64,000 nucleotides of DNA from an uncultured beta proteobacterium (GCA_963815365.1 CAWFGN010000012.1:128934-192933), one strand, 5' to 3'; positions 1 to 20,962 are shown, counted from the stretch's first letter. Notes: generated from the sequence alone by a model not told the origin. Translations and numbers: made by a program.

Positions 1-464
1 ATCTCTGGATCGCCAATATCGACCCCCCACCAGCGGGTAACCCGCCATTTGGCACCGACGTCATGACTCTTGCGATCTTTTCCGATGTAGAAGATCAGCG
101 GCTCCCCGGACGAGCCTCCTGTATTGTATCGGGTCAAATTCTGCTTCCCCTCGGCTTTCCAGGTGTCACCGGCCGCTCGTATGGTGGCCTTGTCGGTGAG
201 CGGGAGGCGCTGCAGGTCGGCGAGGCACGACACTCTTGTTGGTTCGAAGCCGATTTCACTAAACAGATTGCGGTAATAGGGAACGGTCGTCCCGACCTGC
301 ATCAGGAAGGCCTTCAGGCGCTCAACGCGCCAGGCTTCCAGGCGCGCCTTTGGCCAGCGCTCCTGTGCTTCCAGCCGCGATCGCACCGCAACTGATCGGT
401 GGCGCTTTAAACGCTCATGGAGTGGGAAGAGCAAACTGGAGCACAGGTTGGTGTAGAAACTCAT
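1..464 (-). CDS. CapK-like / phenylacetate-CoA ligase family adenylate-forming enzyme (runs off window edge, 3' part missing)
   Basis: Not in the ORF track. Manual translation from ATG at 464 (ATGA overlap with upstream stop): MSFYTNLCSSLLFPLHERLK...VPYYRNLF...LPLTDKATIR...YNTGGSSGEPL, which contains the ANL-superfamily P-loop TGGSSGEP. Confidence 0.8.
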   Translation of the reverse strand, partial: MSFYTNLCSSLLFPLHERLKRHRSVAVRSRLEAQERWPKARLEAWRVERLKAFLMQVGTTVPYYRNLFSEIGFEPTRVSCLADLQRLPLTDKATIRAAGDTWKAEGKQNLTRYNTGGSSGEPLIFYIGKDRKSHDVGAKWRVTRWWGVDIGDPE

Positions 465-2599
465 GTGTGTTCCTCAACTCGCACTTGCCTCGCGACAAGT
501 TCACGATACAAGCCGAGCCATTGGTCACGCACATTGCTCCACGCATAGGCCTGGGCCCGCTTTTTTCCTTCGAGCACCAGACGTTCGGCAAGTGAGTGAT
601 CCGTCAGGAGGCGCACGACCGCAATTGCCATTGCTTGCGGATCGCCCGGCGAAACAAGAAGTGCTGAATGTTCGTGTTCAGCGATGAAGGGGATCCCGCC
701 GACGTTAGTAGTTACCACTGGGACACCGCTGGCATAGGCCTCAAGAATGGAAATTGGCATGTTATCAATCGTGCTCGGATTCAACGTTACGTCGGCACAA
801 GCGTAGAGCGATGCGATGCTGTCGTTGTCGATCCTGCCGGCAAAGCGGATTGCCTCCGAAACTCCCAAATTTGCTGCTAATTGCTCACATTTTGATAACT
901 CGGGCCCGGTGCCCGCGACTGTCATTCGGGCTTCCGCGAAAGTAGACCGGATCAGGGCAAAGCTGCGAATTGCTGTCGGAATATCGTAGATGGCTTCCAG
1001 GTTGCGAGTGACAATCAAATGTGGGGCCCCCGGTTTCAGGCATCGCGCATCGGGATTGAATCGTTCGAGATCGACGATATTCGGGATAACCTGTGCCTGG
1101 ATTGAGTATTTTGCGAATACCCCACGAAGAAATTCGGAAGGAGTAATAACTGCTGCCGCTCCAGCCATCATTCTCTGAACGTAGCTGTAGGTTGATATAA
1201 GAAAGGCGTCCGCGTTTCCCCCACGATAATTAACAATTACTAATACTCCACGCCAGCGAGCAATGATCATCGCGGGTGCAGCAAATAGGTGCCAGGCCCA
1301 GCCAGAATTGGCAAAGACATGGAAAATCTGGTTGCGGCCGGCTGCTCGCCACAGTGAAAAAAGATAGGGAATAAGGCGGAACCCGGCGCGTATTACGGGA
1401 ATGCCCGATACCCAGGCTGGGCGATACACGGCGTTTGTCTGGACCAGTTCGACGGCAACTCCTTCCGATTGAAGTAGACGAAATAGCTGTCGACATTGAT
1501 TCGCCATTCCGCCTGGAGGAGGTGGGAGTGGGCCAATGATGGCTAATCGTAACTCTTTGACATGCCCCGAATCCGTGGCATCGTGGCATGCTTCAGTGTG
1601 CCGGCGATAACGCCAGGCGAAAAACAGGAAAACTGCAGCCACAGCCAGCATCAATCCCAGAATGGTCGCCAGAATAAGGTTGCTGCGCAGACGGAGCAGA
1701 GCGTTTATCTTTGCGGCGCTTTCCGGTGTTTCGACGACACGCAGCGCAGGTTGAACACCGACGAGGATGGCGGCTAACTGTTCCAGGTGACGAGACAGAC
1801 GGCCGGCTAATCTTACCCAGGGATCCTGGTCAACGGTGATGACATTGTTGCCCCACCACAGATACCACTGTTGAGCGCCACGCTGGTAATAGTCGAGAGC
1901 TTTTTCAGGAATGGCATAGCCGGGACGGGCCTGTGGATTCAGGACAGATATGCGAGCCGCCGGGCGTTCTCCACGCAGTGAGGAACGAAATTCGAGAGCC
2001 GAAAGAGGCTCGCCTGTATCTCCATCGAGGAACAGGTAATTGTTGAAGACGTCGATGGCCCGCCATTTTCCGGTAGTCCCGTCCCATATTTCGTTGAAGA
2101 TGTGACCATGGCCACCATAGCCATCAAAGGAGAAATTCCATTGGCGAGTGACAATCCCGTCGGCGCGGGCCAAGGCAGAGAAGACATCAGCAAAATCGCC
2201 ACAATAACCCTCGCCTTGATCGACGATACGTCCGTATGTTTCTTCCAACCCCGCCATGATTGGACCTTTGCCATCCAGACGGACCTGAAGATGCCGAGCT
2301 ATCGCCATAGCACGGGACCACTCGTCTTGATGGCTGTCCAGGTTTAGCTCATTCAGAACTTTCCGAAAGGATGGGGGTGCCTCGTGCCGTTCGAAACGGA
2401 AATCGGCTGGTGCGCTAGTCGGCGACCAGTTAAGATTTGCGGCCGGTTCGATGCCATCAAAGAGTAGTGCGTTGCGCAATCGCACGGCCTCACTACTAGG
2501 TGTTGCTTGCATCAGAACCCAAGTCATAACAGCGGCTAACAAGACGAGGTCAAGCGCCAGTAGTCGGCCGATCCACCGTCTGGAGAGGCGGGATGTCAC
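461..2599 (-). CDS. Membrane fusion protein: transglutaminase-like domain + GT4 glycosyltransferase
   Basis: TM at aa ~10-30; Cys-His-Asp motifs GYCGDF (C133), GHGHIFNE (H166), WRAIDVFN (D183); TM at aa ~308-329; GT4 from aa ~350 (GPLPPPPGGMA, DNMPISILEAYASGVPVVTTNVGG). Confidence 0.85.
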   Translation of the reverse strand: MTSRLSRRWIGRLLALDLVLLAAVMTWVLMQATPSSEAVRLRNALLFDGIEPAANLNWSPTSAPADFRFERHEAPPSFRKVLNELNLDSHQDEWSRAMAIARHLQVRLDGKGPIMAGLEETYGRIVDQGEGYCGDFADVFSALARADGIVTRQWNFSFDGYGGHGHIFNEIWDGTTGKWRAIDVFNNYLFLDGDTGEPLSALEFRSSLRGERPAARISVLNPQARPGYAIPEKALDYYQRGAQQWYLWWGNNVITVDQDPWVRLAGRLSRHLEQLAAILVGVQPALRVVETPESAAKINALLRLRSNLILATILGLMLAVAAVFLFFAWRYRRHTEACHDATDSGHVKELRLAIIGPLPPPPGGMANQCRQLFRLLQSEGVAVELVQTNAVYRPAWVSGIPVIRAGFRLIPYLFSLWRAAGRNQIFHVFANSGWAWHLFAAPAMIIARWRGVLVIVNYRGGNADAFLISTYSYVQRMMAGAAAVITPSEFLRGVFAKYSIQAQVIPNIVDLERFNPDARCLKPGAPHLIVTRNLEAIYDIPTAIRSFALIRSTFAEARMTVAGTGPELSKCEQLAANLGVSEAIRFAGRIDNDSIASLYACADVTLNPSTIDNMPISILEAYASGVPVVTTNVGGIPFIAEHEHSALLVSPGDPQAMAIAVVRLLTDHSLAERLVLEGKKRAQAYAWSNVRDQWLGLYRELVARQVRVEEHT

Positions 2600-3912
2600 C
2601 AGCAGAGACCCTCCACATGACCACGCAAGGCGCCAGGGTCAGGCAAGCCGACCAAGTCGAGTACGTAGTGCTTGTCTGACACATGCTTTTCCAGTGCGTC
2701 GAAAATCTCCTTGGTGGCCAATCCAATTACAAGCACGTCACACTCGGCGATTACCTCTGAGAGGTTTTCGCGCATAAGTTCGCCCAAGTGTGGCACGTGA
2801 TGTTCAATGAAGCGACGGTTGGCGCCGAGCAGGCGAGAGAGATGGACCTCCGGGTCATATACCCGCAGTTGAACACCCTTGCCGACTAGTTGTTCGGCAA
2901 GTGTTACCATCGGCGATTCGCGCAGATCGTCGGTGCCGGTCTTGAACGACAAGCCTACAAAACCCACCCTGCGTGAACCGGTAGCCAGTACTTTTTGGAT
3001 GGCATGCTCTATATGAATCTTGTTGGATGCCAGAATACCCGCGTGCATCGGCAGGTCAATATCACGCTGCTTGCCGAGATAGACGGTGGCTCGCAGGTCC
3101 TTGGGTAAACATGAACCGCCGAAAGCATAGCCGGGTTTCAGGTAGGCCCTGGAGATGTTGAGTTGGGTGTCCCGGCAGACCAGGTCCATAACCTCAAAGG
3201 GATCGACGCCGAGGGCTTCGCAAAGGCGAGCGGATTCGTTGGCAAAAGTGATTTTCAGGGCGTGGAAATTATTGCAGCAGTACTTGACCATTTCAGCTGA
3301 CCGCACACTGGTACGGTAAAACTCGCAGGGCAGGTGACCGAACAGGGTACGCAGGCGATCGGCCGGGTAATCGTGATTGCATCCGACAATTGTGAAGGGG
3401 GGCTTGTCGTAGTCGCGGATCGAACTACCTTCGCGCAGGAATTCTGGCTGGAAGCAGCAGAAGAAGTCCGTTCCTTCCTTCTTGCCGGAAGAGGCTTCAA
3501 TTATCGGTCGGATGACATCCTCGACGGTGCCCGGGACGAGAGTGGAACGAAAAACGAAGACATGCGGCTGGGTCTTGTCTCGCATTGCCTTGCCTACCTG
3601 CTCGGCAAGCCGCAACATCGCGCTTTGATCCTGGCTCCCGTTGGCCGCCGATGGCGTTCCGACGCAGACCAGTGAAATTTCGGAGTCCACAACTGCTCTG
3701 GCGGCATCTTGGGTAACCGATACTAGGCCGGAGGCAACGACACGCTGCATGAGGTTGACCATTCCTTCTTCGACGACTGGCGTGCTGCCGCTACTGATCA
3801 GATCGAGCTTCGTCTGGTCTATGTTTACACCAATGACTTCATGACCGTCGCGGGCGAGACAGGCCAGCGACACTGCACCTACGTAACCCAGACCAAATAT
3901 GCTGATTTTCAT
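2596..3912 (-). CDS. UDP-glucose/GDP-mannose dehydrogenase family (AlgD-like)
   Basis: GLGYVG Rossmann motif, PEFLREG, catalytic FGGSCLPKD, GLSFKTGTDDLRESP. Confidence 0.92.
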   Translation of the reverse strand: MKISIFGLGYVGAVSLACLARDGHEVIGVNIDQTKLDLISSGSTPVVEEGMVNLMQRVVASGLVSVTQDAARAVVDSEISLVCVGTPSAANGSQDQSAMLRLAEQVGKAMRDKTQPHVFVFRSTLVPGTVEDVIRPIIEASSGKKEGTDFFCCFQPEFLREGSSIRDYDKPPFTIVGCNHDYPADRLRTLFGHLPCEFYRTSVRSAEMVKYCCNNFHALKITFANESARLCEALGVDPFEVMDLVCRDTQLNISRAYLKPGYAFGGSCLPKDLRATVYLGKQRDIDLPMHAGILASNKIHIEHAIQKVLATGSRRVGFVGLSFKTGTDDLRESPMVTLAEQLVGKGVQLRVYDPEVHLSRLLGANRRFIEHHVPHLGELMRENLSEVIAECDVLVIGLATKEIFDALEKHVSDKHYVLDLVGLPDPGALRGHVEGLCW

Positions 3913-3942: not shown

Positions 3943-5142
3943 CTAGTTGGCTTGCCGGCGTGCCATCACGCGCGCAATGATGCTGTCGAGACGCCGCATG
4001 GAGGCCTGCCAGTCATGGTTGGTCAACATGCGTTCGCGACCAGCGACCGAAAAACGGGCTCGTTCATCGGCATCCTGCATCAGGCGAAGGCAGGCCTCGG
4101 CGTAGGAAGCGGGGTTTTCGCCGACGAGGAAGTGGACGCCATCCTGAGCATCGACACCGCCGGCTCCGGCGGGACTGGTAACGACGGGAACGCCCATCGC
4201 CATGGCTTCGAGAATCTTGTTCTGGGTGCCCCGCGCAATGTTGAGCGGGGCCACCATGGCGGCCGAACGAAGGATATAAGGCCGAACATCGGGAACAGAG
4301 CCGGTAACCGTGACGCCGGGCAACTCACCAAGCTTGCGGACCGCAGGTGTTGGATCGGCACCAACGATGATCAACTTGGCCTGCGGCCTTTTTGCGCGGA
4401 TCAGGGGCAGGGTGTTGCGGCAGAAATCGAACATGCACTCTTGATTGGGGTAGTAGTCCATGCGGCCGATGAAAGAGAGCGTATCGGCGTCGTAGCCGCC
4501 ACCGTCCGGTTTGAAGAAGCCCGCATCGACCCCGTTGGGAAACCAGTCGGTGGTCGGAGCGGTGCCATAGGACTGCAGGGTTTCCCATTCGGCGCGGGTG
4601 GTGGCAGTGCTGAAATCGAATTTTTTCGCCAGCCGCCGTTCCGCCAACTCCATCTTGCTGCCTTCGAGGCGGTAGCCGAGGGAAAGCGGGAAGGGCTTGT
4701 AATTGGCGTACTCTAACCATTTCTGCGAATCCATGTCGCCGAAATCGATAATCTTCGGAATGCCCTGAACGTCCTCGACATACTGGGCCACAGAGGAGCA
4801 ATGAACGAAGATGAGATCGAAATTTTCACTGGCGAGCAGTGCATCGACGCGATGCTTGAGGTCTGGCGAATAGAAGTAACCCATGGACGATGGCGTTAAC
4901 ACTGGCAGGCGGACGACCATCCGCAGCATCTGGATCGGATTCTTCACCGAAGCCATTTCGAATCGCTGGCAATGGCCGGCTATGCCTTCGCCCTCCCTCG
5001 CCTCATCCGGCGAACGGGATAGCGAGCATACCGTCACCTGATGGCCCTGGGATGTGAAATGGCGAATCATGTTGAAAGGGCGAATCTTTCCGCCCCGCTT
5101 GGGCGGAAAGGGAAAACGGTGGCATACGTAGAGAATCTTCAT
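3943..5142 (-). CDS. GT4 sugar transferase, PEP-CTERM/XrtA system (TIGR03087-like)
   Basis: HRFPFPPKRGGKIR, GRMDYYPN, APLNIARGTQNKILEAMAMG motifs. Confidence 0.88.
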   Translation of the reverse strand: MKILYVCHRFPFPPKRGGKIRPFNMIRHFTSQGHQVTVCSLSRSPDEAREGEGIAGHCQRFEMASVKNPIQMLRMVVRLPVLTPSSMGYFYSPDLKHRVDALLASENFDLIFVHCSSVAQYVEDVQGIPKIIDFGDMDSQKWLEYANYKPFPLSLGYRLEGSKMELAERRLAKKFDFSTATTRAEWETLQSYGTAPTTDWFPNGVDAGFFKPDGGGYDADTLSFIGRMDYYPNQECMFDFCRNTLPLIRAKRPQAKLIIVGADPTPAVRKLGELPGVTVTGSVPDVRPYILRSAAMVAPLNIARGTQNKILEAMAMGVPVVTSPAGAGGVDAQDGVHFLVGENPASYAEACLRLMQDADERARFSVAGRERMLTNHDWQASMRRLDSIIARVMARRQAN

Positions 5143-7064
5143 GCAAGCATTCCATGCAATTCGGCAGTCACGTCCTCGTGGCTGCGGCGGTCCAGATAAA
5201 TCCTCGCCCAGATCTCGAAGTTGAGTAGGGCGATCAGTGCATCGGTGTAGTCCTGACGATTCGCCCGATGGTCGGCCACCAACTGGGAAACCACGGCGGC
5301 ATCGAACAGCCCGCGGGCGTTGATGGCTTCCGGAGAGAGTATTCGGTCAAGCAGTCGACCCAGTTCGCCCTTTAGCCAGGCTCCCATCGGTGTACCGAAA
5401 CCGCGTTTCTTTCGGTGCAGGATATCCGGCGGCAAACGTCCGGCCAGAGCCTGCTTCATGGCCGACTTGAGAACGCCCCCTTTGATCTTGATCGCCTCCG
5501 GCATGGTCGCGGCCATTTCCAAGAGTTCATGATCCAGCAGGGGAACACGACATTCGAGCGAGACCGTCATGCTCATCTTGTCGGTCAGCATTAATAGGTC
5601 ATCCGGCAATTGCGACGCCATGTCAACGGCCAGCATATGGTTGCAAGGGTCATCCTGCTTGCTGGCGTCAAAGGCTTCCAGCAGTGGATCCCAGGCTGAA
5701 CCGCTACCGCCTTTGAGCAGGCGGCCAGCCAGGGAGCGGTCCATAATTTGCAGATAGGCGCGGTAACGCTCTTCAAAGGAAAGGTCGGCCGTTGCCAGGA
5801 AACCCTTTGCAAGACGAGCGATATTGAGCCACTTCGAGTGGCGGTCGGCCGGGAGTATCCGGCCGATGCCCTTGGCCGCATCCTGGAACGCATTTGGCAG
5901 ACGGCAGAATCGTTCGGCATAGTGGTTGCCGAGATATCGCCGGTAGCCACCGAACAACTCGTCACCGCCGACGCCGGAGAGGATTACGGTGACATCCTGG
6001 CGAGCGAACTCGCTGACCAGGTAGGTGGTGATGAAGGCCGTATCGGCTATAGGTTCGTCCATGTGCCAGAGCAACCGGGGCAGGAGCGCCACGACATCGG
6101 GCTTGACGACGATTTCATGGTGGTCGGTGCCGAACAGTTCGGCGACGCGTCGGGCGTAGGGCAGTTCATTGTAGAAATTATCGGCCGCAGAGCCAGCAAA
6201 GCCGATGGCGTAGGTCTTGACCGGCCGGGATGCTGCCTCGGCCATGCAGGCTACGACCGCCGATGAGTCAATGCCGCCAGACAGGAAGGCCCCGATGGGG
6301 ACATCGGAAACCATCTGCATGCGCACGGAGCGGTTAATGCCACTAGCTATCCGTTCTATCCACTCCCCTTCGCTGATCCCGGTTTCGACGTTTTCAGGAA
6401 GCGACCAATAGCAACGCGTGCTGGCGGCTCCGGCCTCGATGCTCATCAGGCTAGACACCGGCAGCTTGGAAATACTCTCGAACATGGAGCGCGGTGCAGA
6501 GACGTAACCGAGGTTGAGATAACTGGCGAGGGCAGTGTGATCAACCGCGGCGCTGACGCCCGGCAGGGCGAGCAAAGCCTTGGCTTCGGTAGCGAAGGCC
6601 AGGCGCTGGCCATCCCGCCGCCAATAGAGAGGCTTGACGCCAACCCGGTCGCGGCCGATCAGCAGGCGGCGACGCTTGGCATCCCACAGCGCAAAGTTGT
6701 ACATACCATTGAGGCGCAGGACAAAATCATCGCCCCAGGCTTCGTAAGCGTGCAGGATCACTTCGCAGTCGGAGCCCGTCTTGAATCGGTGACCGGCACT
6801 GGTCAGTTCGTCGCGCAGTCCGCGGAAATTATAGATTTCGCCATTGCAGACGAGCCATAGGCTCCCGTCTTCGTTGGTAAGCGGTTGGTGGCCGCCGGCC
6901 AGGTCGATAATGGACAGGCGGCGCATGCCGATGACGCAGTTGCCGTCGTGGTGCCAGCCATGATCGTCGGGGCCGCGGTGGCGGGTGATGTCTCCCATGC
7001 GTGCCATGAGCGCCGGGTCGGCGGAGCTGCCGTCAAGGTGAATGATGCCGTATATGCCACACAT
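5139..7064 (-). CDS. asnB: Asparagine synthase (glutamine-hydrolysing)-type amidotransferase
   Basis: N-terminal MCGI (Ntn Cys), HRGPD, NGEIYN, LSGGIDSS, SGVGGDELFGGY. Confidence 0.9.
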   Translation of the reverse strand: MCGIYGIIHLDGSSADPALMARMGDITRHRGPDDHGWHHDGNCVIGMRRLSIIDLAGGHQPLTNEDGSLWLVCNGEIYNFRGLRDELTSAGHRFKTGSDCEVILHAYEAWGDDFVLRLNGMYNFALWDAKRRRLLIGRDRVGVKPLYWRRDGQRLAFATEAKALLALPGVSAAVDHTALASYLNLGYVSAPRSMFESISKLPVSSLMSIEAGAASTRCYWSLPENVETGISEGEWIERIASGINRSVRMQMVSDVPIGAFLSGGIDSSAVVACMAEAASRPVKTYAIGFAGSAADNFYNELPYARRVAELFGTDHHEIVVKPDVVALLPRLLWHMDEPIADTAFITTYLVSEFARQDVTVILSGVGGDELFGGYRRYLGNHYAERFCRLPNAFQDAAKGIGRILPADRHSKWLNIARLAKGFLATADLSFEERYRAYLQIMDRSLAGRLLKGGSGSAWDPLLEAFDASKQDDPCNHMLAVDMASQLPDDLLMLTDKMSMTVSLECRVPLLDHELLEMAATMPEAIKIKGGVLKSAMKQALAGRLPPDILHRKKRGFGTPMGAWLKGELGRLLDRILSPEAINARGLFDAAVVSQLVADHRANRQDYTDALIALLNFEIWARIYLDRRSHEDVTAELHGMLA

Positions 7065-7082: not shown

Positions 7083-8360
7083 TCAGGTGGTGGTTGTAGC
7101 GTTGACAGCGCCACGTCGGGCAGGTGGCAGGAGCTCGCGATAAACTGCACGATAGTTGGAGGCACTGTGCGCCCATGTCCGCTCGTTTTCGACGAAGGCG
7201 CGACCAGCGCGACGCATCGCTTCCCAACGCTCGCGGTGGGCGAGCATGCGACTGATGGCTTCGGCCAGGGCGCCGGCATCTCCGGCGCGGAAGAGAGCGC
7301 CGGTTTCGCCATCGCGGATCAGTTCCCGGTGACCACCGACGTCCGAAGCAAGCAGAAGCTTGCCTTGTGCCATGGCTTCGAGAGGTTTGAGCGGGGTAAC
7401 CAGATCGGTAAGGCGCATCGATTTTCGGGGGTAGCACAACAGGTCGATCTGGCCGTAGTAGCGCTGAACTTCGCTGTGCGGCACGCGTCCGGTGAAGACG
7501 ACGCGACCGTTGAGCCCGAGTCGTTTAGTCTGCTCGCGCAGGGCTGCGTCCTGCGGGCCGCCGCCAACCAGCAGAATCTTGAGATCAGGGTGTTTGGGCA
7601 GCAATTGTTTGGCGGCATCCAGCAGCAGGTCGAGGCCTTCGTAACCATAAAACGATCCGGCAAAACCGAGAACGACACAGCCATCGAGGCCAAGTGCAGT
7701 GCGCAGCTCGGGTTCGGCTGCCGGCTCGTAGGCAAAGGAGTCAACATCGACAGCATTGGGGATAACCGTTACCTTTTCCGGGGATATTCCGCCACGCGAC
7801 ACGATGTCCTTGCGCAAGCCTTCGCAAATGGTGGTAACGGCATTGGCCCGGCGTAGTGCCCAAGTTTCGAGGGTGCGGGAAATCTTGTAACGCAGGCTGC
7901 CTTCCGCTGTCGTACCATGGTCGACCGCCGCATCCTCCCAAGAAGCGCGCATTTCGTACACCACAGGCAGGCCTAGCTTGCGCCCTGCGCGAATGGCGGG
8001 AATTGCATTGAGCACCGGCGAATGGGGGTGCAGGATGTCGGGACGCAGGCATTTGACAAGCTCTTCAATACGCTTCTGGGTCGCGGCCATCTGTCCGAAA
8101 TAGCCGCGGATGCCCGTCATTTCCTCTTTGGCGGTGGTGCGGTGGAATACCCAGCCGTCGACCTCTTCCTGATCGGAAAACGTGCTGCCCTGCTTGGGTG
8201 TTGTCAGGTGTAGCGTCTCCCAACCCATGCGCCGCTGTTCGGTGAGCAGGGCGAGCGAGCGGAAGGCGTAGCCGCTGTGCAGGGGAATGGAGTGATCGAG
8301 AATGTGCAGAATTCGCAGTGAGTCGGTCTTCGATTTTGATTTCTGTCGATCGTAGATCAT
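7083..8360 (-). CDS. GT4 glycosyltransferase, PEP-CTERM/XrtA system (TIGR04063-like)
   Basis: ILHILDHSIPLHSGY, WEDAAVDHG, VTPLKPLEAMAQG motifs; locus context. Confidence 0.88.
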   Translation of the reverse strand: MIYDRQKSKSKTDSLRILHILDHSIPLHSGYAFRSLALLTEQRRMGWETLHLTTPKQGSTFSDQEEVDGWVFHRTTAKEEMTGIRGYFGQMAATQKRIEELVKCLRPDILHPHSPVLNAIPAIRAGRKLGLPVVYEMRASWEDAAVDHGTTAEGSLRYKISRTLETWALRRANAVTTICEGLRKDIVSRGGISPEKVTVIPNAVDVDSFAYEPAAEPELRTALGLDGCVVLGFAGSFYGYEGLDLLLDAAKQLLPKHPDLKILLVGGGPQDAALREQTKRLGLNGRVVFTGRVPHSEVQRYYGQIDLLCYPRKSMRLTDLVTPLKPLEAMAQGKLLLASDVGGHRELIRDGETGALFRAGDAGALAEAISRMLAHRERWEAMRRAGRAFVENERTWAHSASNYRAVYRELLPPARRGAVNATTTT

Positions 8361-10283
8361 GCCGCCAGGCTCCCACGATCAAGTACGGCGTTGTCGCCAG
8401 CGTTGCGCAGGAAGGCTTCGAACATCAGCAGGGTCCAGATCGGGGCGCTGTAATCGCGGCCGCCGTTGTTGTGATCGTTGACCAGTTGTTGCAGATAGTT
8501 TCGGTTAAACCAGCCGGTGTCGGCCAGACGAGGGCCGAGGATGGCTTCCTGAACGCGCTGCTTGAGCGGGCCGCGGAACCAGCGGGCGAGCGGTACCGAG
8601 AACCCCATTTTGGGGCGATAGAGCACGTCGTTGGGCAGGTAGGGCTCCATGGCCTTCTTGAGCAGGTACTTGCCCTCCTGGCCGCGAACTTTTTGCGATG
8701 AACGTAGTGAGGCGAGCCATTCGACGAGTTCGTGATCCATCAAGGGTTCGCGAACCTCCAGCGAGTGTGCCATGCTGGCGCGGTCAACCTTGGTGTTGAT
8801 GTCGCCGATCAGGTAAGTCTTCAGATCGAGGTACTGAATCAGGGAAAGCGGATCGTCTGTGCAGGCCTTTGCTGCATGGCCGCAAAAAACTTCACTGGCA
8901 TCGTAGCCGCCAAGCGCGGATTTGAATTTGTCGGTGAATAGTTGATTGCGCATGGGGGCGCGCAGGATCGAAACCGAGTGGAAATATGCCTCGACGGAAG
9001 TCCGTGCCATGCCTTCGAAGGTGGTCTTCGCCCTGAAAACGCGCGGTGCCCAATCGGCTTTCGGATAAATCTTGCCCAGCGCACTGAATACCGACCGGCG
9101 CAGACCAAGAGGTAGGGCCGAGCGCATTTTTTCTTCCATCAGGTGCAGACGGTAGCGGCGATATCCACCGAAAATTTCGTCGCCGCCATCACCTGATAGC
9201 GCGACCGTGACATGTCGGCGTGCCAGTTTGACAGACGCGGTAGGTCGGGATGGCGGAACTGTCGGCGTAAGGCTCGTCATAGAGCTTGGCAAGCGTATCG
9301 ACGAGATCGAAATCATCGCTTTCGACCATGTCGAGGTGGTGATTTGTCTGGTAGCGGTCGGCCACCATCTTGGCGAATTCGGACTCGTTGAAGGCTGGAT
9401 CGGCAAAACCGATCGAGCAAGTGTTAACCGGTTTGTTCGACAACCCCGCCATCATTGCGACGACTGCGCTCGAGTCAACGCCTCCCGAAAGGAAGGCGCC
9501 AAGCGGTACTTCGGAAATCATCCGGAGCTTGATGGATTCTTCGAGGCGGCGGGTTAGTTCGGCGCAGGCATCGGCATCGCTGATCGGGTTGTTAAGTGTG
9601 AAACGGACGTCCCAGTATTCGCGGGGCTCACCGACCGGCTGTCCTCGACGTAGCAGCAACGTGTGGGCTGGTGGCAGCTTTTTCGCCTGTTTGAAGATGG
9701 CGCGTGGTTCGGCGACATAGCCAAGGGCAAAATATTCCTCGACAGCGCAAGGATCGATCTCGCGCTTCAGTCCGCCGTGAGCCAGCAGGGACTTGAGTTC
9801 CGAGCCAAAGAGGAAACTGCCGTCGTCAACAAAGGCATAGAAGAGCGGTTTGACACCGAGGCGATCACGGGCCAGGAACAGGGTTTCGCGATTGCGATCC
9901 CAGAGGGCGAAGGCGAACATGCCGCGAAAACGACCAACACAACTTGCTCCCCAAGCTTCCCAGGCATGCACGATGACTTCGGTGTCGCTGCGGGTATGGA
10001 ATACATGGCCCAGAGCCTGCAGTTCGGGGATCAGTTCCTGATAGTTGTAGATTTCGCCATTGAAAACAACGCAAACCGATTGGTCTTCGTTGTAGAGCGG
10101 TTGCTGGCCGGTGGACAGGTCGATGATCGAAAGACGACGATGGCCAAGGCCAACACCGGGCTCGATATGCATGCCGCCTTCGTCCGGGCCACGATGGAAT
10201 TGCGATTCGTTCATGCGATGGAGGGCTACGCGGTCAATATCGCGCTTGCCGCGTGTATCAAAAATTCCGGTAATTCCGCACAT
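8357..10283 (-). CDS. XrtA/PEP-CTERM system amidotransferase (AsnB family, TIGR03108-like); apparent +1 frameshift at ~9228
   Basis: MCGITG start at 10283. ORFs 9189..10313 and 8357..9406 join as PTYRVCQ-LARRHVTVALSGDGGDE if one base of ttt 9227-9229 is removed. Confidence 0.88.
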
Positions 10284-10284
10284 G

Positions 10285-11478
10285 CTAGGAAGGCTCCTCA
10301 ATCTTTCTGGCAATTGTGCCCGAGCCGATCAGAAGCCGTTCATAGGTGTCCTGGTAAGCAGCGACCATGGCGCTCATGCTGAACTTGCATTCGACGCTAT
10401 CCCGCCCTGCCCGACCCATGCGTCGGGCCATGTCCGGTTGATTGGCAAGACGACAGATTTGTTGGGCCATGGACTCGATATCGGCCGGCGGCACGAGTTC
10501 ACCGCTGATGCCTGTCGCGACCAAATCGACATTGCCGCCGACCGCCGTGGCGATGACCGGCAGGCCCGATGCCATGGCTTCAAGAACAGTATTCGAAATA
10601 CCTTCGGCGAGCGAGGGGAGGACAAAGCAGTCAAGTCCGCGCATTAACTCGGGAATGTCGCTGCGCTCTCCAGGCAGCCATGCCAATTCGCTCAGGCCGG
10701 CGTCGGCAAGGAGTTTCTGACATTCGCCGCGTAGTGGGCCATCTCCGATCATCGTCAAACGAAGATGCGGCCTGAGTGAGGGATCAATCTGCAGCGCTCG
10801 AATGAAGGCACGGGTCAAGCCTGGTTGATCCTTGACTTGCTGCATGCGGCCTACCGTGCCGACTATCCAGTGCTTTGGTCGCGCAAAGGGGCAACCCGCT
10901 GCGGAAGGGTTTCCCGCCTCGGCCGGCTGAAAACGTTCGGTATCGACGCCGTTATAGACTTGAAGCATTCTGTCTTCTGGAATGTGGATCTGACGGACCA
11001 GATAGTCGGCCAAGTCGCGCGACAGCGCGAGGTAATAACTCACGAACGGTCGATAAAACCGTCTCACCCGCTGATAGGTGAGATTCGATCCATCAAGGTC
11101 GCCCATATCCCATCCGTGCTCCCCATGGATGCGTACAGGAACCCCGGCCGCCCAGGCAGGGAGTTGCACCTCAAGCGCCGCCAGGTTGCGGCTGTGAACG
11201 ATAGCCGGACGCAATCTGCGAAAAAGGGCGAACAGTTTTGGAAAGAGCCAGATACCGTGCCCGGGAGCCTTGTTCAGGGCGATGAACTCGACGTCGTCGA
11301 GCCGGATTCGCTGGCGGAAATCAGTGATCTCGGTGAGGGCGATAACGACATGGCGAAAGCGGTCAGGCGGCAAGTGGTTGATCAGATTGACAACGCCATT
11401 TTCCAGGCCGCCGGTATCGAAGCGGTAAATGACATGGGCGACCAGCGGGCGCGGATCAGACTTCGGCTCAACGCGCAT
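10285..11478 (-). CDS. GT4 sugar transferase, PEP-CTERM/XrtA system (TIGR03088-like)
   Basis: AHVIYRFDTGGLENGVVNLIN, HGEHGWD, EGISNTVLEAMASG. Start moved to ATG 11478. Confidence 0.88.
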   Translation of the reverse strand: MRVEPKSDPRPLVAHVIYRFDTGGLENGVVNLINHLPPDRFRHVVIALTEITDFRQRIRLDDVEFIALNKAPGHGIWLFPKLFALFRRLRPAIVHSRNLAALEVQLPAWAAGVPVRIHGEHGWDMGDLDGSNLTYQRVRRFYRPFVSYYLALSRDLADYLVRQIHIPEDRMLQVYNGVDTERFQPAEAGNPSAAGCPFARPKHWIVGTVGRMQQVKDQPGLTRAFIRALQIDPSLRPHLRLTMIGDGPLRGECQKLLADAGLSELAWLPGERSDIPELMRGLDCFVLPSLAEGISNTVLEAMASGLPVIATAVGGNVDLVATGISGELVPPADIESMAQQICRLANQPDMARRMGRAGRDSVECKFSMSAMVAAYQDTYERLLIGSGTIARKIEEPS

Positions 11479-14201: not shown

Positions 14202-15239
14202 TCACCCCAGGCTGCGCACGATATGCGGGCCTAGCCAGTTGGCGAGGCCGATCGGCATCCGCCGCCAGGCTTCGATCAGGAGACGGTACTTGGCGTTGGC
14301 CGGGTTGTTCTGCGGAACGCTGTCGCGTTTGTACAGGCAGTATTCGTAATGCAGCGGCCGTGGTTCGAAACCCCAATTCTTCTTGAAGGCGAAGGAGCCG
14401 GTGTCCCGCTTGCTGCGGCCGTAGTCGAAGACCTTGATGCCGCGTTCGCAACTGCGGCGCATTAGTTCCCAGTACTTGAAGTCGTTGGCGGCCAGGTGGC
14501 GGGCGCTTTCGTCGTCCCCGGCGTAGTAGGGCAGCACTTCGTCGCGGAAATAGAAGGACAGGACGCTGCTCAGGAGGCGACCATCGGGACCGCTGACGGT
14601 CAGTATTTCGCAGTCATCGCCAAAGACGCGGAGCAGTGTGTCGAAATAGCGCTTGGGCATGGCCGGCGTACCGTGGCGATGGACGTTGTCGGCGTAGAGG
14701 GCGAAAAAGCGGTCAGTATTGCGGTCAACCGTGGAAACCAGGCCATTTTTGATGCCCTTGCGCACCATCGCCCGTTGTTTGCGGGGAATGGCGAGCATGT
14801 TTGCCTCGACCTCAGGCAGGATTTCCTTGCGGAACGTCACGTAAAGATCCTGGGTTGGCCAGTCGGCATGGCGTTGGTTGACGTTGCGGAATTCCAGATG
14901 ATCGACGCCCAACTTGCCCGCCAGGGCGCGAGCCTCGGCTTCCAGTGCATCGGCGGCTTGAGGATCGCTGGCGGCGACACCACCATAGACAGCAAAGGGC
15001 ATGGCGACCAGGGAATTGCCGAAAATCAGGCTGTGGACGTGGGCGAGCGGCAATATGCCGTGAATTTCGCCAGCAGATTCCGCGTACAGGAAGTGAGTCG
15101 GGTGGCGGAAAATGTCGCGCAGGATACCCTGCCAGGATGAACGGTGAAAAAACGTGGCTTCCGGGCAGGCGCGGACAAAGTCGTCCCAGCGGCTTGCGGT
15201 GGCAGTATCGCTAGCGTCCAGGCGTCTGATGTTGAGCAT
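14202..15239 (-). CDS. FemAB-related GNAT protein, PEP-CTERM/XrtA system (TIGR03019-like)
   Basis: PEATFFH, IPRKQRAMVRKG, FDYGRSK, FKKNWGF motifs. Confidence 0.9.
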   Translation of the reverse strand: MLNIRRLDASDTATASRWDDFVRACPEATFFHRSSWQGILRDIFRHPTHFLYAESAGEIHGILPLAHVHSLIFGNSLVAMPFAVYGGVAASDPQAADALEAEARALAGKLGVDHLEFRNVNQRHADWPTQDLYVTFRKEILPEVEANMLAIPRKQRAMVRKGIKNGLVSTVDRNTDRFFALYADNVHRHGTPAMPKRYFDTLLRVFGDDCEILTVSGPDGRLLSSVLSFYFRDEVLPYYAGDDESARHLAANDFKYWELMRRSCERGIKVFDYGRSKRDTGSFAFKKNWGFEPRPLHYEYCLYKRDSVPQNNPANAKYRLLIEAWRRMPIGLANWLGPHIVRSLG

Positions 15240-15244
15240 GCGGT

Positions 15245-16084
15245 TTAGCCCTCAACCAGAAAGAGCCGGTCCATGCGTTCCCAGTGAAAATCGCCCAGCA
15301 ACCGGTTGAGGCGTGCTTCCATTTGACCAATGTTGACGTAGTGGCGGAAGCGGGTCTTGACGCCGATACCGGGAATGCGTGGCTGGTCGCCATCGATTTC
15401 CCAGGGATGGAAATAGAAGACGGCGGGAAGCTTATCAACGTGGTTGACCCTGCGCAGCATCCAGCGCGACAGCTCATAGGGCATCAGGCGGAAATAGCCG
15501 CCGCCGCTGGCCGGCCAGTTGCGGTTGAGAAGGCGCAGCGTGGTGGCCGGAATTTCGAGCAACGCGCCGATCGCATGCGCGTGCCTTGGTGCATCCGGCA
15601 TGCCGTAATGATCATGGCGGATGGGATAGATGCTCGAACTGTATAGGTATCCCGCCCGTTCGAGGCACTCGAAGGCCCACATATTGGCATGGCCGATCGA
15701 AAAGCTGGGGGCGCGGTAGCCTTTGACCGCCTGGCCGGTCAGGTCTTCCAGAATCAGCTTGGCCAGGTGGATATCCGCGAAAAATGCCGCTTCGCTCTGG
15801 TCGCTGGCCCGTTCATGTCCATAGCCATGGCTAGCCACTTCATGCCCTGCCGCAGCAATGCGCTTGACCAGTTCCGGATAGCGCTCGGCGATCCAGCCCA
15901 GGGTGAAAAAGGTTGCGCTGACGCCATACTGGTCGAGCATCGCAAGAATGCGGTCAACATTGCGCTCGACGCGGCACTCACGGGTCGGCCATTCGCTGCG
16001 CGGTATGTGTGGCGCAAATGCGGAAACCTGAAAATAGTCCTCGACATCGATGGTAAGGGCGTTGGAGACCTGGGGTGCTTGCAT
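15245..16084 (-). CDS. Polysaccharide deacetylase, PEP-CTERM locus (TIGR03006-like)
   Basis: TIDVEDYFQV, ASHGYGH, GYRAPSFS, GGGYFR, YFHPWE motifs. Confidence 0.92.
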   Translation of the reverse strand: MQAPQVSNALTIDVEDYFQVSAFAPHIPRSEWPTRECRVERNVDRILAMLDQYGVSATFFTLGWIAERYPELVKRIAAAGHEVASHGYGHERASDQSEAAFFADIHLAKLILEDLTGQAVKGYRAPSFSIGHANMWAFECLERAGYLYSSSIYPIRHDHYGMPDAPRHAHAIGALLEIPATTLRLLNRNWPASGGGYFRLMPYELSRWMLRRVNHVDKLPAVFYFHPWEIDGDQPRIPGIGVKTRFRHYVNIGQMEARLNRLLGDFHWERMDRLFLVEG

Positions 16085-17274: not shown

Positions 17275-18371
17275 TCGTTATCCTTGGTAGCGCCGCTATT
17301 CGCAGCCGGTATTGCCGCGACAAATTGCTGCAGGAGGCTCAGTGTCGCCGCGTTGATGCGTTCCAATTGCACGAGACCTTGTTCAAGTCGTGCCAGGCGC
17401 TCGTCGAACTGACCGGCACTGAGTCCGGCGAGCAGTTGCCCGACTTCTTCCGCAGAGCCGGTATGCGGGCCTGGGTGGGATGAGTTCAGCGACGTGTAGC
17501 GGATCTGGTCGGGAACAGCGGGTACGTAGGGCTGGCCAGAACTGCCGGAACTGCCAAGGGTTTCTTCGTGAATTTCGCGGGCGACCTCTTCGACGTCGGC
17601 GGCGTTGAATTCTTTCTTCTCGCTCAGGTAGCCCATCAGCAACAAACGGTCGCAGACGGAGTTGATACGTCGGGGGATGCCGCTGCTGGCCTTGAAAATT
17701 GCTTCAAAGGCGTCGGGAAGAATTGCCAGGCTGTCCTCAGTGGCGCCCGCCCGTTTCAAACGGTGCTCGATGTAACTCCGTGTCTCGTCGACATCCAGCG
17801 GCCCGATATGGCAGGCAGCAATCACACGCTGACGAAATTGCATCATGTGTGGACTTTGCAGGATTTCCCTGAATTCCGGCTGACCGACCAGGAAACTTTG
17901 CAGCAAAGCACGGTTGCCGTACTGGAAGTTGGAGAGCATGCGCAGTTCCTCGACGGCCCGCGCGGTGAGGTTCTGCGCTTCATCCACAATCAGCAGACAG
18001 CGCTTGCCTTTACTGGTCAGGTTGATCAGGAAGGCCTCCAGCGCCATCAATACATCGGACTTTGCGACGTCCCGGGTGCGGATCCCAAAAGCCGCACCAA
18101 CCAGGCGCAAGGTATCGTCGGCATCGAGTTGCGTGCTGACCAGCGTGGCGGCGACCACTTTTTCCTGATCCAGGCTCTCCAGCAGTCCCCTTACGATCGT
18201 CGTCTTGCCTGCACCGACTTCACCTGTGACGACGATAAATCCTTCGTTTTGGTGCATCCCATATTCAAGATATGCCGTGGCGCGACGGTGCTGCTTGCTG
18301 CCGAAATAAAAGCTCGGGTCAGGGTTGAGCTGGAACGGCTTGTCGGTCAGCCCAAAAAAGGATTCGTACAT
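17271..18371 (-). CDS. XrtA/PEP-CTERM system ExeA-like ATPase (TIGR03015-like)
   Basis: MYESFFGL..PF start at 18371; Walker A GEVGAGKT; Walker B VDEAQNL; GIPRRIN. Confidence 0.9.
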   Translation of the reverse strand: MYESFFGLTDKPFQLNPDPSFYFGSKQHRRATAYLEYGMHQNEGFIVVTGEVGAGKTTIVRGLLESLDQEKVVAATLVSTQLDADDTLRLVGAAFGIRTRDVAKSDVLMALEAFLINLTSKGKRCLLIVDEAQNLTARAVEELRMLSNFQYGNRALLQSFLVGQPEFREILQSPHMMQFRQRVIAACHIGPLDVDETRSYIEHRLKRAGATEDSLAILPDAFEAIFKASSGIPRRINSVCDRLLLMGYLSEKKEFNAADVEEVAREIHEETLGSSGSSGQPYVPAVPDQIRYTSLNSSHPGPHTGSAEEVGQLLAGLSAGQFDERLARLEQGLVQLERINAATLSLLQQFVAAIPAANSGATKDNE

Positions 18372-18375
18372 GGGC

Positions 18376-20953: not shown

Positions 20954-20962
20954 CGATTATCC

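Follow-up and report, generated by a model that had tools for sequence, protein, structure and literature searches.

A predicted periplasmic transglutaminase-fold domain joined to a GT4 glycosyltransferase: a recurrent fused form of a gene pair from a subset of XrtA/PEP-CTERM exopolysaccharide loci

Results

The fusion gene and its locus

The window analysed here, 64,000 nucleotides from an uncultured beta proteobacterium (GCA_963815365.1 CAWFGN010000012.1:128934-192933), carries at positions 461..2599 of the minus strand a single ORF of 712 amino acids with a GTG start and full-length homologues, which encodes a fusion (P0001) of a transglutaminase-like (TGL) domain and a GT4-type glycosyltransferase (GT). 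Its start overlaps the stop of the upstream gene (GTGA), a nucleotide-sugar dehydrogenase (2596..3912, minus; TIGR03026, 347.8 bits) to which it is translationally coupled, and its stop shares an ATGA overlap with the start codon of the next gene, similarly coupled, for a CapK/PaaK-like adenylate-forming ligase; the N-terminal part of this ligase is present, the gene being cut by the end of the window (3..464, minus). Further upstream lie an stp1-type GT (3943-5142, minus) and AsnB2, a second AsnB-type amidotransferase (5139-7064, minus); these two genes (3943..7064) form with the dehydrogenase an AsnB2–stp1–dehydrogenase triad.

The surroundings are those of a textbook XrtA/PEP-CTERM EPS cluster, with xrtA 9 kb from the fusion gene. 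The stp1, stp2 and stp3 GTs, XrtA-EpsI, FemAB, the deacetylase, an ATPase, an outer-membrane protein, a Tyr kinase, a chain-length determinant and an exporter all score above their NCBIfam cut-offs; the amidotransferase model TIGR03108 (cut-off 817) is matched below cut-off only, by AsnB2 (555 bits) and by the two halves (443 and 625 bits) of a copy interrupted by a 1-nt frameshift. The exosortase-type EPS setting proposed by the initial annotation therefore stands, and within it P0001 is linked in particular to the dehydrogenase and to AsnB2. The GC content is 55% over positions 1-3000 of the window, versus 57–62% in most of the locus further in, but 18001-22500 is also at 56–57%, and so slight a dip makes no case for a recent transfer of the cassette.

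Domain layout and membrane topology

P0001 is composed of TM1, a TGL domain with C133, H166 and D183, TM2 followed by RYRR, and a complete GT4, which is the layout first described for this ORF, on a strand, the minus, that had been left unstated. All coordinates in this section refer to that strand. TM1 (residues 11–31, 2507..2569) follows the basic N-terminus SRLSRRWIGR, reaches a Kyte-Doolittle peak of 2.09 and is part of a helix spanning residues 2–32 in the AF2 model. The transglutaminase-fold domain, predicted to be periplasmic, covers residues 33–305 (1685..2503; AF2 pLDDT 96, VIA-align, Foldseek), and within it the Pfam Transglut_core match (residues 125–183, 2051..2227; 29.4 bits, cut-off 23) holds the triad codons, C133 (2201-2203), H166 (2102-2104) and D183 (2051-2053), checked on the translation; the GYCGDF motif begins at residue 131. 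TM2 (residues 306–328, 1616..1684), with a Kyte-Doolittle peak of 2.83, belongs to a long helix (292–338) that is paired with TM1 in the models. The fusion junction (1550..1612) consists of the stop-transfer motif RYRR (330–333), predicted to be cytoplasmic, and a flexible linker (334–350) whose pLDDT falls below 50 at residues 338–347, and the remainder is a GT4 (GT-B) domain, residues 351–705 (485..1549), predicted to lie in the cytoplasm.

The two hydrophobic segments, at about 11–31 and 306–328, and the RYRR motif suggest a coherent topology with the N-terminus inside, the TGL domain in the periplasm and the C-terminal GT4 inside, as had been proposed. The full-length AF2 model has a mean pLDDT of 91.2 and a pTM of 0.63; given this pTM and the disordered linker at 338–347, the TGL and GT4 halves behave as independent domains in spite of the high pLDDT.

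The TGL domain

The triad is indeed intact and correctly ordered: among 52 homologues, with identities down to about 35%, C133 is conserved in 52/52, H166 in 51/52 and D183 in 51/52, and all three residues are invariant in a 33-sequence full-length alignment. The GYCxDF and GGxGH motifs are also conserved, and C133 is the sole cysteine of the periplasmic part in 52/52 homologues, which, since this compartment is oxidising, fits a free nucleophile. The Transglut_core (PF01841) score exceeds the gathering threshold, and most homologues carry a precomputed assignment to it as well. Scanned against NCBIfam, the first 345 residues of P0001 and two standalone relatives matched no family.

By VIA-align, the TGL model resembles the TG2, factor XIII and TG3 cores (Z 8.2–9.3, 172–180 residues aligned, rmsd about 4 A) and PNGase (Z about 8 over about 165 residues). 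The best Foldseek matches are 3isr, a putative Cys protease, and the periplasmic domain of TgpA (6g49), both with probability 1.00 and E about 2e-3; other Foldseek neighbours are LapG (weak, E 0.025), PeiP and putative Cys proteases. A profile search of PDB sequences gave only two sub-threshold matches, PNGase (E 0.54, with all three triad residues aligned) and 3isr (E 1.2). A VIA-align search against 48,161 PDB representatives was uninformative on the catalytic domain, being dominated by coiled-coil and helical-hairpin matches to the paired TM1/TM2 helices. As judged from the models, the TGL domain has a papain-like/transglutaminase core, a moderate likeness at the level of the fold that is silent on the substrate.

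The GT4 half

Residues 362–688 match three Pfam families above their cut-offs, Glyco_transf_4 (PF13439, 40.0 bits, cut-off 28.5), Glycos_transf_1 (PF00534, 96.7 bits, cut-off 26.4) and Glyco_trans_1_4 (PF13692, 104.4 bits, cut-off 27), so that both halves of a GT4 enzyme are above threshold and P0001 belongs to this family of retaining GT-B enzymes. In the model the GT4 half forms two domains of alternating beta/alpha pattern, where pLDDT is above 90 for the most part, and 65 positions of the GT4 half are invariant in the 33-sequence alignment. The XrtA-associated stp1, stp2 and stp3 (TIGR03087, TIGR03088, TIGR04063) are likewise GT4 enzymes, and stp2 is the best named match among them (94 bits), but P0001 remains below the NCBIfam cut-offs of the XrtA-associated GTs (94.2 versus 409, 59.9 versus 442 and 24.6 versus 317 bits). 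Moreover, stp1 (in two copies), stp2 and stp3 are present as separate genes in the same locus, none of them with a TGL domain.

Fused and split forms

Clustering at 90% identity sorts the full-length homologues of about 700 amino acids (687–741), which come from independent assemblies, into more than 100 groups, and one homologue, of 714 amino acids and 65% identical to P0001, is encoded in a complete Azonexus genome; the fusion is therefore genuine, as initially argued from its topology. It is nevertheless a minority state. Among 77 species-level loci, 9 encode the fused form, 51 have adjacent separate genes, 7 have a deacetylase gene between the two and 10 have no nearby GT4. Homologues always encoded as two genes had been named as a finding that would speak against the fusion; "always" fails, with 9/77 loci fused, but "mostly" is correct, with 58/77 split. 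The separate TGL genes encode proteins of about 340 amino acids with two TM segments, and the GT4 of the split forms lacks a TM segment; the end of the TGL gene and the beginning of the GT4 gene correspond to the fusion junction of P0001, and in close Zoogloea relatives the separate ORFs overlap at this junction. At least seven fusion/fission switches are needed on the N-domain tree of the 77 loci, the fused forms cluster in several clades, the linker of P0001 can be aligned to the linkers of other fusions, and two fusions join the TGL domain to a different GT4 paralogue (about 27% identity). The fusion is thus a recurrent variant of a gene pair and not a unique architecture, and the existence of fused and split states shows that the two halves work together, the globular parts being predicted to lie on opposite sides of the membrane. 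One distant relative has a third TM inserted, followed by disaggregatase-repeat and PL14 lyase domains, which argues that the TGL domain is extracytoplasmic and stands beside polysaccharide-acting modules.

In databases, where this architecture is common, members of the family are annotated as "glycosyltransferase" or "hypothetical protein".

Co-occurrence and dispensability

In related loci the dehydrogenase gene is immediately upstream of the TGL gene in 65/70 cases, stp1 is present in 57/64 and AsnB2 in 51/60, and a CapK orthologue follows the TGL/GT4 pair in 52/65. These genes define an optional cassette, AsnB2–stp1–dehydrogenase–TGL–GT4–CapK-like ligase–Wzy_C–deacetylase, carried by part of the XrtA/PEP-CTERM EPS loci of Burkholderiales and Rhodocyclales. 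Co-occurrence was measured in an order-level sample, which replaced a class-level one where matches in only 3/300 genomes were too sparse for this purpose; it comprises 301 genomes, 92 XrtA-positive and 209 without XrtA, which are related to one another so that the counts are dependent. The TGL gene is present in 7/301 genomes, all seven being XrtA-positive (above cut-off) and none among the 209 without XrtA, and in six of the seven it lies about 10.5 kb from xrtA on the same contig. It is absent from 85 of the 92 XrtA genomes sampled and is hence an accessory, not a core, component of XrtA systems. It occurs in 7/17 genomes with the orthologous dehydrogenase of the AsnB2–stp1–dehydrogenase triad, versus 0/284 without. 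The triad is also found without the TGL gene, in AsnB2–stp1–dehydrogenase–GT4–CapK cassettes that are otherwise identical, and three loci (L089, L091 and L094) have the dehydrogenase, GT4 and CapK genes but lack TGL. In one genome the TGL copy lies away from EPS genes, beside a PQQ-dehydrogenase and two-component genes (sensor kinase and sigma-54 regulator).

Discussion

A candidate amide editor of the exopolysaccharide

The reading that we favour, with somewhat better than even confidence, is that P0001 is a two-pass inner-membrane protein combining a TGL-fold periplasmic amide editor with a GT4, in the fused form of a conserved pair. Its two enzymes would function autonomously, connected through TM2 and a flexible linker of roughly 15 residues. 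In the cytoplasm, the GT4 would extend the lipid-linked EPS repeat unit by one sugar, probably the uronic acid that the coupled dehydrogenase produces; once this unit has been flipped, the periplasmic TGL domain, with its free catalytic thiol and the C133–H166–D183 triad, would act on a group held by an amide bond in that uronic-acid-containing polymer, presumably via a thioester acyl-enzyme. The computed features would be compatible with hydrolysis, transamidation or proteolysis; hydrolysis that trims or edits the polymer would be the most likely outcome, with acyl transfer to amines a minority possibility. A fixed role on this EPS is made less certain by the three loci in which the cassette does without TGL and by the copy away from EPS genes, and a sugar-editing role by HvyA, a characterised TGL-type enzyme of a capsule locus, which appears to be a regulator and not a sugar editor (PMC4241560).

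Alternative activities

The periplasmic domain might instead be a true transamidase, an unlikely but coherent proposal in which a carboxamide, for instance a uronamide made by the dehydrogenase and AsnB2, serves as acyl donor, ammonia is released and the floc matrix is cross-linked covalently without ATP; the acceptors proposed are a de-N-acetylated sugar, an amino acid added by FemAB, or a lysine of a PEP-CTERM protein. In favour of this proposal, the animal transglutaminase cores are the best VIA-align match (Z about 9), the periplasmic TGL domain of TgpA is active as a transglutaminase in vitro (PMC3507681), and the TGL gene is found only with the AsnB2–stp1–dehydrogenase triad and, in 65/70 loci, directly after the dehydrogenase. 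A carboxamide made at the expense of ATP would also be a suitable stored donor for an ATP-free compartment. However, no computed feature tells transfer from hydrolysis, the nearest sequence match, PNGase, is a hydrolase, and 3isr, LapG and PeiP are putative or proven hydrolases. The TGL gene is missing from most of the XrtA genomes sampled and from otherwise identical cassettes, and floc-type XrtA matrices generally do without it; being optional, it cannot encode a general matrix cross-linker of XrtA systems. In addition, a supply of uronamides and amines had been put forward as an argument for cross-linking, but FemAB, the deacetylase and AsnB are already covered by a published model in which a linking sugar is used by the exosortase as transpeptidase (PMC7468200), a model that requires no transglutaminase. 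In its most specific form, which is a shade more speculative, the enzyme would be a polysaccharide transglutaminase: the uronamide would be a pre-activated donor, C133 would form the thioester with loss of ammonia, and the uronyl group would be passed to an amine on a neighbouring EPS chain or a PEP-CTERM protein. If true, this would amount to a covalent, ATP-independent extracytoplasmic curing of the floc matrix, analogous to peptidoglycan transpeptidation, and the repeated GT4 fusion would link the step that adds the donor sugar with the one that later consumes it.

Characterised microbial members of the transglutaminase-like superfamily are mostly hydrolases, and the TGL domain could be a cysteine protease like LapG and HvyA, cutting a PEP-CTERM protein or a protein of polymerisation or export and regulating EPS output. 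This possibility, which we also regard as improbable, is suggested by the Foldseek list, whose best matches include LapG as well as putative Cys proteases, by the one TGL copy beside a sensor kinase and a sigma-54 regulator, and by HvyA itself, which is encoded within the capsule export locus of Caulobacter, prevents capsulation and requires its Cys, His and Asp (PMC4241560). The TGL gene lies, however, among genes that make or modify sugars (dehydrogenase, GT4, ligase), away from export genes and PEP-CTERM substrates; the domain is anchored in the membrane at both ends whereas LapG and HvyA are soluble; no BTLCP match is found in Pfam at E<=1; and a regulator of protein stability would have little obvious reason to fuse repeatedly to a glycosyltransferase.

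It is much less likely that the TGL domain is non-catalytic, a two-TM anchor or scaffold that brings the GT4 to the site of assembly or holds the growing polymer in the periplasm. The independence of the halves, the floppy linker, the lack of a TM in the GT4 of split forms and the fusion of the same N-domain to two unrelated GT4 paralogues would agree with such a role, but orthologous GT4s work without a TGL gene in the three loci mentioned above, and the near-invariant triad, the GYCxDF and GGxGH motifs and the single cysteine across 52 sequences would rather point to selection on catalysis. Finally, an artefactual ORF joining two genes by frameshift or misassembly, which could be feared from a draft MAG (77% complete, 15 contigs) with a 1-nt frameshift in the TIGR03108 amidotransferase of the same locus and overlapping ORFs in Zoogloea relatives, is rejected with near certainty by the independent fused clusters in several clades, the complete genome and the aligned linker.

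Significance

Floc formation in activated-sludge bacteria, among them Zoogloea, Thauera, Accumulibacter and Aquincola, is driven by XrtA/PEP-CTERM loci, as is the formation of a matrix by many environmental Proteobacteria. The present analysis delimits an unnamed family, covered by no NCBIfam model, of two-TM periplasmic putative thiol enzymes that is specific to a subset of these loci, strictly accompanies the uronic-acid/amidotransferase triad and is repeatedly fused to a GT. If the amide-editing reading that we favour is correct, or if the enzyme cross-links amide-bearing EPS, the family would represent a rare case of transglutaminase-fold chemistry on polysaccharide and would offer a handle on sludge settling; if the TGL domain is a protease or regulator, it would extend the HvyA paradigm of capsule control.

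Comparison with known systems

The statement that no enzyme with the TGL–GT4 architecture has been characterised stands as far as literature searches reach: searches for PEP-CTERM with transglutaminase, or for TGL with exopolysaccharide, glycosyltransferase and periplasm, did not retrieve the family, and HvyA was the sole relevant precedent. HvyA of Caulobacter crescentus (structural type LapG) shares with P0001 the superfamily, a periplasmic thiol and a Wzx/Wzy-type locus; it is a negative regulator of capsulation whose triad is required for function (PMC4241560), and provides a precedent for transglutaminase-like enzymes in capsule/EPS biogenesis. HvyA is, however, a soluble protein of the BTLCP family with a signal peptide and no adjacent or fused GT, while P0001 is anchored by two predicted TM helices and has no Pfam match to the BTLCP/Peptidase C93 profile at E<=1, and so does not classify with that family.

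TgpA (PA2873) of Pseudomonas aeruginosa (PDB 6g49) also has a membrane-anchored periplasmic Cys-His-Asp Transglut_core domain, which aligns with the TGL domain over about 128 columns with 18% identity, and transglutaminase activity in vitro was reported for TgpA, not for members of the P0001 family (PMC3507681). The N-terminal membrane region of TgpA is multi-pass and is not combined with a glycosyltransferase; the protein is essential and is encoded outside EPS loci. With a single TM on each side of the domain and none of the TgpA-associated membrane families in Pfam, P0001 is not of the TgpA type.

PNGase (PDB 2f4m/1x3w), the best profile match among solved structures although not a significant one (E 0.54), presents GRCGEW, HVWTEV and WLHCD where P0001 has GYCGDF, GHIFNEI and WRAID, and its amidase activity is directed at an amide linked to a sugar. 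Unlike P0001, it is cytosolic and eukaryotic, with a zinc-binding motif, other partner domains and no membrane anchors. The cores of TG2, TG3 and factor XIII give the highest VIA-align scores, over model residues 60–296, with the same order of triad residues, but identity is 13–16%, the beta-sandwich and barrel domains are missing in P0001 and there is no evidence for the tunnel tryptophans. The Cys-to-His spacing is 33 residues in P0001 and 58 in TG2.

Finally, the present locus and the Wbp/Vim pathway of Porphyromonas and Tannerella have in common a FemAB/VimA-like aminoacyl transferase, a VimE-like deacetylase of family CE4 and an amidotransferase of AsnB/WbpS type whose substrate is a uronic acid sugar. 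The Wbp/Vim pathway builds an aminoacyl-uronamide linking sugar for the sortase-type transpeptidase PorU, and its authors point to XrtA loci (PMC7468200). This pathway has no transglutaminase-like component, and so explains the neighbours of P0001 but not P0001 itself.

Results

The TGL-GT4 fusion is encoded on the minus strand at positions 461-2599 of the window, as an ORF of 712 codons; the nucleotide-sugar dehydrogenase gene upstream ends in a TGA that overlaps the GTG start of this ORF (GTGA). At its other end, the TGA stop shares an ATGA overlap with the ATG of a gene for a CapK/PaaK-like adenylate-forming ligase, which runs beyond the window end. The layout read from the sequence in the initial annotation, a TM segment (TM1), a transglutaminase-like (TGL) domain, a second TM segment (TM2) and a complete GT4, is recovered by the ORF call, by Pfam (Transglut_core at residues 125-183, 29.4 bits for a cut-off of 23; complete GT4 at residues 362-688) and by the hydrophobic segments at about 11-31 and 306-328. 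The triad residues C133 (in GYCGDF, starting at residue 131), H166 and D183, and the RYRR motif behind TM2, are also present where they had been placed. Residues 33-305 are predicted to lie in the periplasm, since the N-terminus is basic, TM2 is followed by RYRR and a GT4 depends on cytoplasmic nucleotide sugars. The full-length AF2 model consists of two confident domains (mean pLDDT 91.2; pTM 0.63) joined by a disordered linker (338-347); the fusion junction falls within window positions 1537-1612.

The fusion is real: both halves occur together in proteins of 687-741 amino acids (45-85% identity), for which a search of 5.8 billion sequences gave more than 100 clusters. These stem from independent assemblies (Azonexus, Rubrivivax, Rhodocyclaceae and Burkholderiales), among them a complete genome (714 amino acids, 65%), and bear out the first reading of this ORF. 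The intact triad, on the conservation of which that reading had been staked, is invariant in an alignment of 33 full-length fused homologues and near-invariant in 52 N-terminal regions (C 52/52, H 51/52, D 51/52). The proposed nucleophile is the only cysteine of the periplasmic part in 52/52 homologues, which fits with a free thiol in an oxidising compartment. R40, R42, R152, W58, W154, W179 and W245 are invariant as well.

The fold class predicted for the periplasmic domain can be considered settled. The AF2 model of residues 1-345 has a pLDDT of 96 and a pTM of 0.92, and its weak Foldseek matches in the PDB fall in one superfamily: 3isr (putative Cys protease, E 1.7e-3), the TgpA periplasmic domain (6g49, 2.1e-3), TglA, LapG, arylamine N-acetyltransferases, PNGase, PeiP and TG2/FXIII. 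VIA-align superposed the TG2, TG3 and FXIII cores on model residues 60-296 (Z 8.2-9.3, 172-180 residues, rmsd about 4 A) and PNGase with Z about 8, and mouse PNGase came top, with C/H/D aligned, in a profile search of PDB sequences, though at a non-significant E of 0.54. A wide VIA search with the same model was swamped by the TM helical hairpin and was set aside. None of the NCBIfam models covers the TGL domain, which is not a BTLCP domain by Pfam search, and its standalone members are named 'hypothetical protein'.

Fusion is nevertheless the minority state of a gene pair. Residues 30-320 gave 438 HMMER matches among 1.84 billion representatives, the majority of them standalone proteins of 320-360 amino acids with the same TM-domain-TM layout and few of about 700. 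A scan of 185,579 species genomes identified 168 carriers; in the best 80 loci, which were analysed further, nearly every carrier belongs to the Burkholderiales or Rhodocyclales (Zoogloea, Dechloromonas, Accumulibacter, Thauera, Aromatoleum, Rhodoferax, Roseateles, Ideonella and Aquabacterium), and a few are Methylomonas or Steroidobacter. The objection that homologues might always be encoded by two genes describes most of the 77 classifiable loci among these 80, with separate adjacent genes for TGL and the orthologous GT4 in 51 and a deacetylase gene between them in 7, yet the fused state is found in 9; GT4 is absent within 2.5 kb of the TGL gene in 10. Zoogloea has N-domains that count among those closest to the window's (59-63% identity); its TGL gene (342 amino acids) and GT4 gene (366 amino acids) share a few codons, read in different frames, so that a small indel interconverts the two states. 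At least seven fused/split switches are required on a maximum-likelihood tree of N-domains. The fusions of loci L009 (P0122) and L026 (P0131) involve a different GT4 paralogue, about 27% identical to the window's. TGL seems to pair with 'a GT4' in general and not with a single orthologous group. The same 'type B' paralogue (26-35% identity) follows or is fused to the TGL domain in loci L014, L051, L056 and L073, and the two type B fusion proteins measure 755 (P0122) and 772 (P0131) amino acids. Taken together, the fused, split and GT4-less counts, the switches, the paralogue fusions and the two-domain model with its disordered linker form a Rosetta-stone pattern, that of two autonomous enzymes working together.

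About 24 kb around the fusion gene form a canonical XrtA/PEP-CTERM EPS locus, in which NCBIfam cut-offs are exceeded for stp1 (two copies), stp2, stp3, XrtA-EpsI, FemAB, the deacetylase, WecB, the ATPase, the outer-membrane protein, the tyrosine kinase, the chain-length determinant and the exporter. The amidotransferase model TIGR03108 has sub-cut-off matches only, to AsnB2, the second AsnB paralogue, which passes the general asparagine-synthase model TIGR01536, and to the two halves of a frameshifted copy (8357-10313, minus strand). This copy, first annotated as one gene, is in fact two overlapping ORFs (9189-10313 and 8357-9406) split by a 1-nt indel near 9217-9239, within RVC/KLARRHVTVALSGDGGDE; its Azonexus orthologue is intact (641 amino acids; 93% and 87% identity on either side of the break). 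The MAG is 77% complete, and the frameshift reflects either a faulty assembly or a gene that has recently become a pseudogene.

An orthologous dehydrogenase gene lies directly upstream of the TGL gene in 65/70 loci, stp1 (57/64) and AsnB2 (51/60) also precede it, and GT4, the CapK-like ligase (52/65), a Wzy_C/DUF5935 protein and a second deacetylase are encoded downstream. Across 301 evenly sampled genomes of the window's order, which are related so that the counts are descriptive and not statistical, XrtA scores above cut-off in 92, and the TGL domain is present in 7, all XrtA-positive, six of the seven copies sharing a contig with xrtA at about 10.5 kb. The co-occurrence with xrtA and amidotransferases that the initial annotation had proposed to check is therefore observed. 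The orthologous dehydrogenase (at least 69% identity) is present in 17/301 genomes, and TGL in 7 of these 17 versus 0/284 others. These order tallies include the unpublished genomes G326 and G593, and a class-level sample includes the unpublished G296; the sequences of these three genomes do not enter the analysis. Three loci (L089, L091 and L094) carry an AsnB2-stp1-dehydrogenase-GT4-CapK cassette without the TGL gene. In four further genomes of the order, among them one from the window's genus and two from its family, the XrtA locus has no close match to AsnB2, stp1, the dehydrogenase or GT4. These distributions mark the cassette as accessory and the TGL gene as an optional insertion in it, one linked to the uronic-acid/amidotransferase branch although this branch does not require it.

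Several loci deserve separate mention. In L091 (G397 contig 16, 19500-37000), which retains dehydrogenase-GT4-CapK without TGL, the whole cassette (stp3, AsnB2, stp1 and Wzy_C) appears as many short tblastn pieces in different frames, which suggests decay of the locus or assembly of low quality. In L085, from a complete genome of the window's genus (G429), there is neither a TGL homologue nor the AsnB2-stp1-dehydrogenase cassette, and XrtA shares only about 36% identity with that of the window; conservation of the window's EPS locus thus does not extend across the genus, and the locus may have undergone exchange. GC content is 55% at window positions 1-3000 and 57-62% across most of the locus further in. 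A TGL homologue of 354 amino acids (43% identity) lies away from the XrtA locus in G320 (contig 10; L095, 8269-9333), flanked by a PQQ-dependent dehydrogenase and cytochrome c, and by a HAMP histidine kinase and a sigma-54 response regulator, while the AsnB2-stp1-dehydrogenase triad of this genome adjoins xrtA on another contig (L096).

Discussion

The two domains come from superfamilies already known, there is a precedent for TGL enzymes in polysaccharide loci, and the fused architecture is already abundant, though unnamed, in databases. What is new is the definition of the 2-TM TGL family, its confinement to some of the XrtA loci, its strict association with the AsnB2-stp1-dehydrogenase triad and its recurrent joining to GT4s.

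We propose that the GT4 would add a sugar at the cytoplasmic face, probably a uronic acid because of the translational coupling to the dehydrogenase, and that, after flipping, the membrane-tethered thiol enzyme would attack an amide-type bond on the polymer that carries this sugar, via a thioester intermediate. As hydrolases (PNGase, the PeiW/PeiP isopeptidases, LapG) make up most of the microbial enzymes characterised in the superfamily, hydrolytic editing is the likelier activity of the TGL domain and ranks before transfer to an amine. Such a transfer, by which the domain would covalently cross-link the matrix as first proposed, would be of high interest if true; it is chemically elegant and consistent with the strict association of TGL with AsnB2 and the dehydrogenase, but we consider it rather improbable, as the TGL gene is missing from most XrtA systems and as a published rationale already covers FemAB, deacetylase and AsnB in XrtA loci, in which they make an aminoacyl-uronamide as the linking sugar that a sortase-type transpeptidase uses (PMC7468200). 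For a role as protease or regulator, HvyA is a direct precedent, since blocking of capsulation in Caulobacter requires its triad (PMC4241560), but the recurrent GT4 fusion and the sugar-modifying neighbourhood fit such a role less well.

A single sequence, the distant TGL relative P0258 (metagenome, 1257 amino acids), supports a putative extracytoplasmic, polysaccharide-directed role. Behind TM1-TGL-TM2 it has one more hydrophobic segment (334-355) and, after that, a disaggregatase-related repeat and a PL14 (polysaccharide lyase 14) domain, and because of this third TM the TGL and lyase modules would both be extracytoplasmic. Another relative, P0216, likewise has a third TM, plus TPR repeats.

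Among known systems, TgpA has a periplasmic TGL domain with transglutaminase activity in vitro (PMC3507681). Within the window, the FemAB-like (14202-15239), CE4 deacetylase (15245-16084) and AsnB-like (5139-7064 and 8357-10313) genes follow the logic of VimA/VimE/WbpS in linking-sugar synthesis by Porphyromonas (PMC7468200), a likeness which suggests that the locus makes an acceptor, an aminoacyl-uronamide, to which the exosortase would attach PEP-CTERM proteins.
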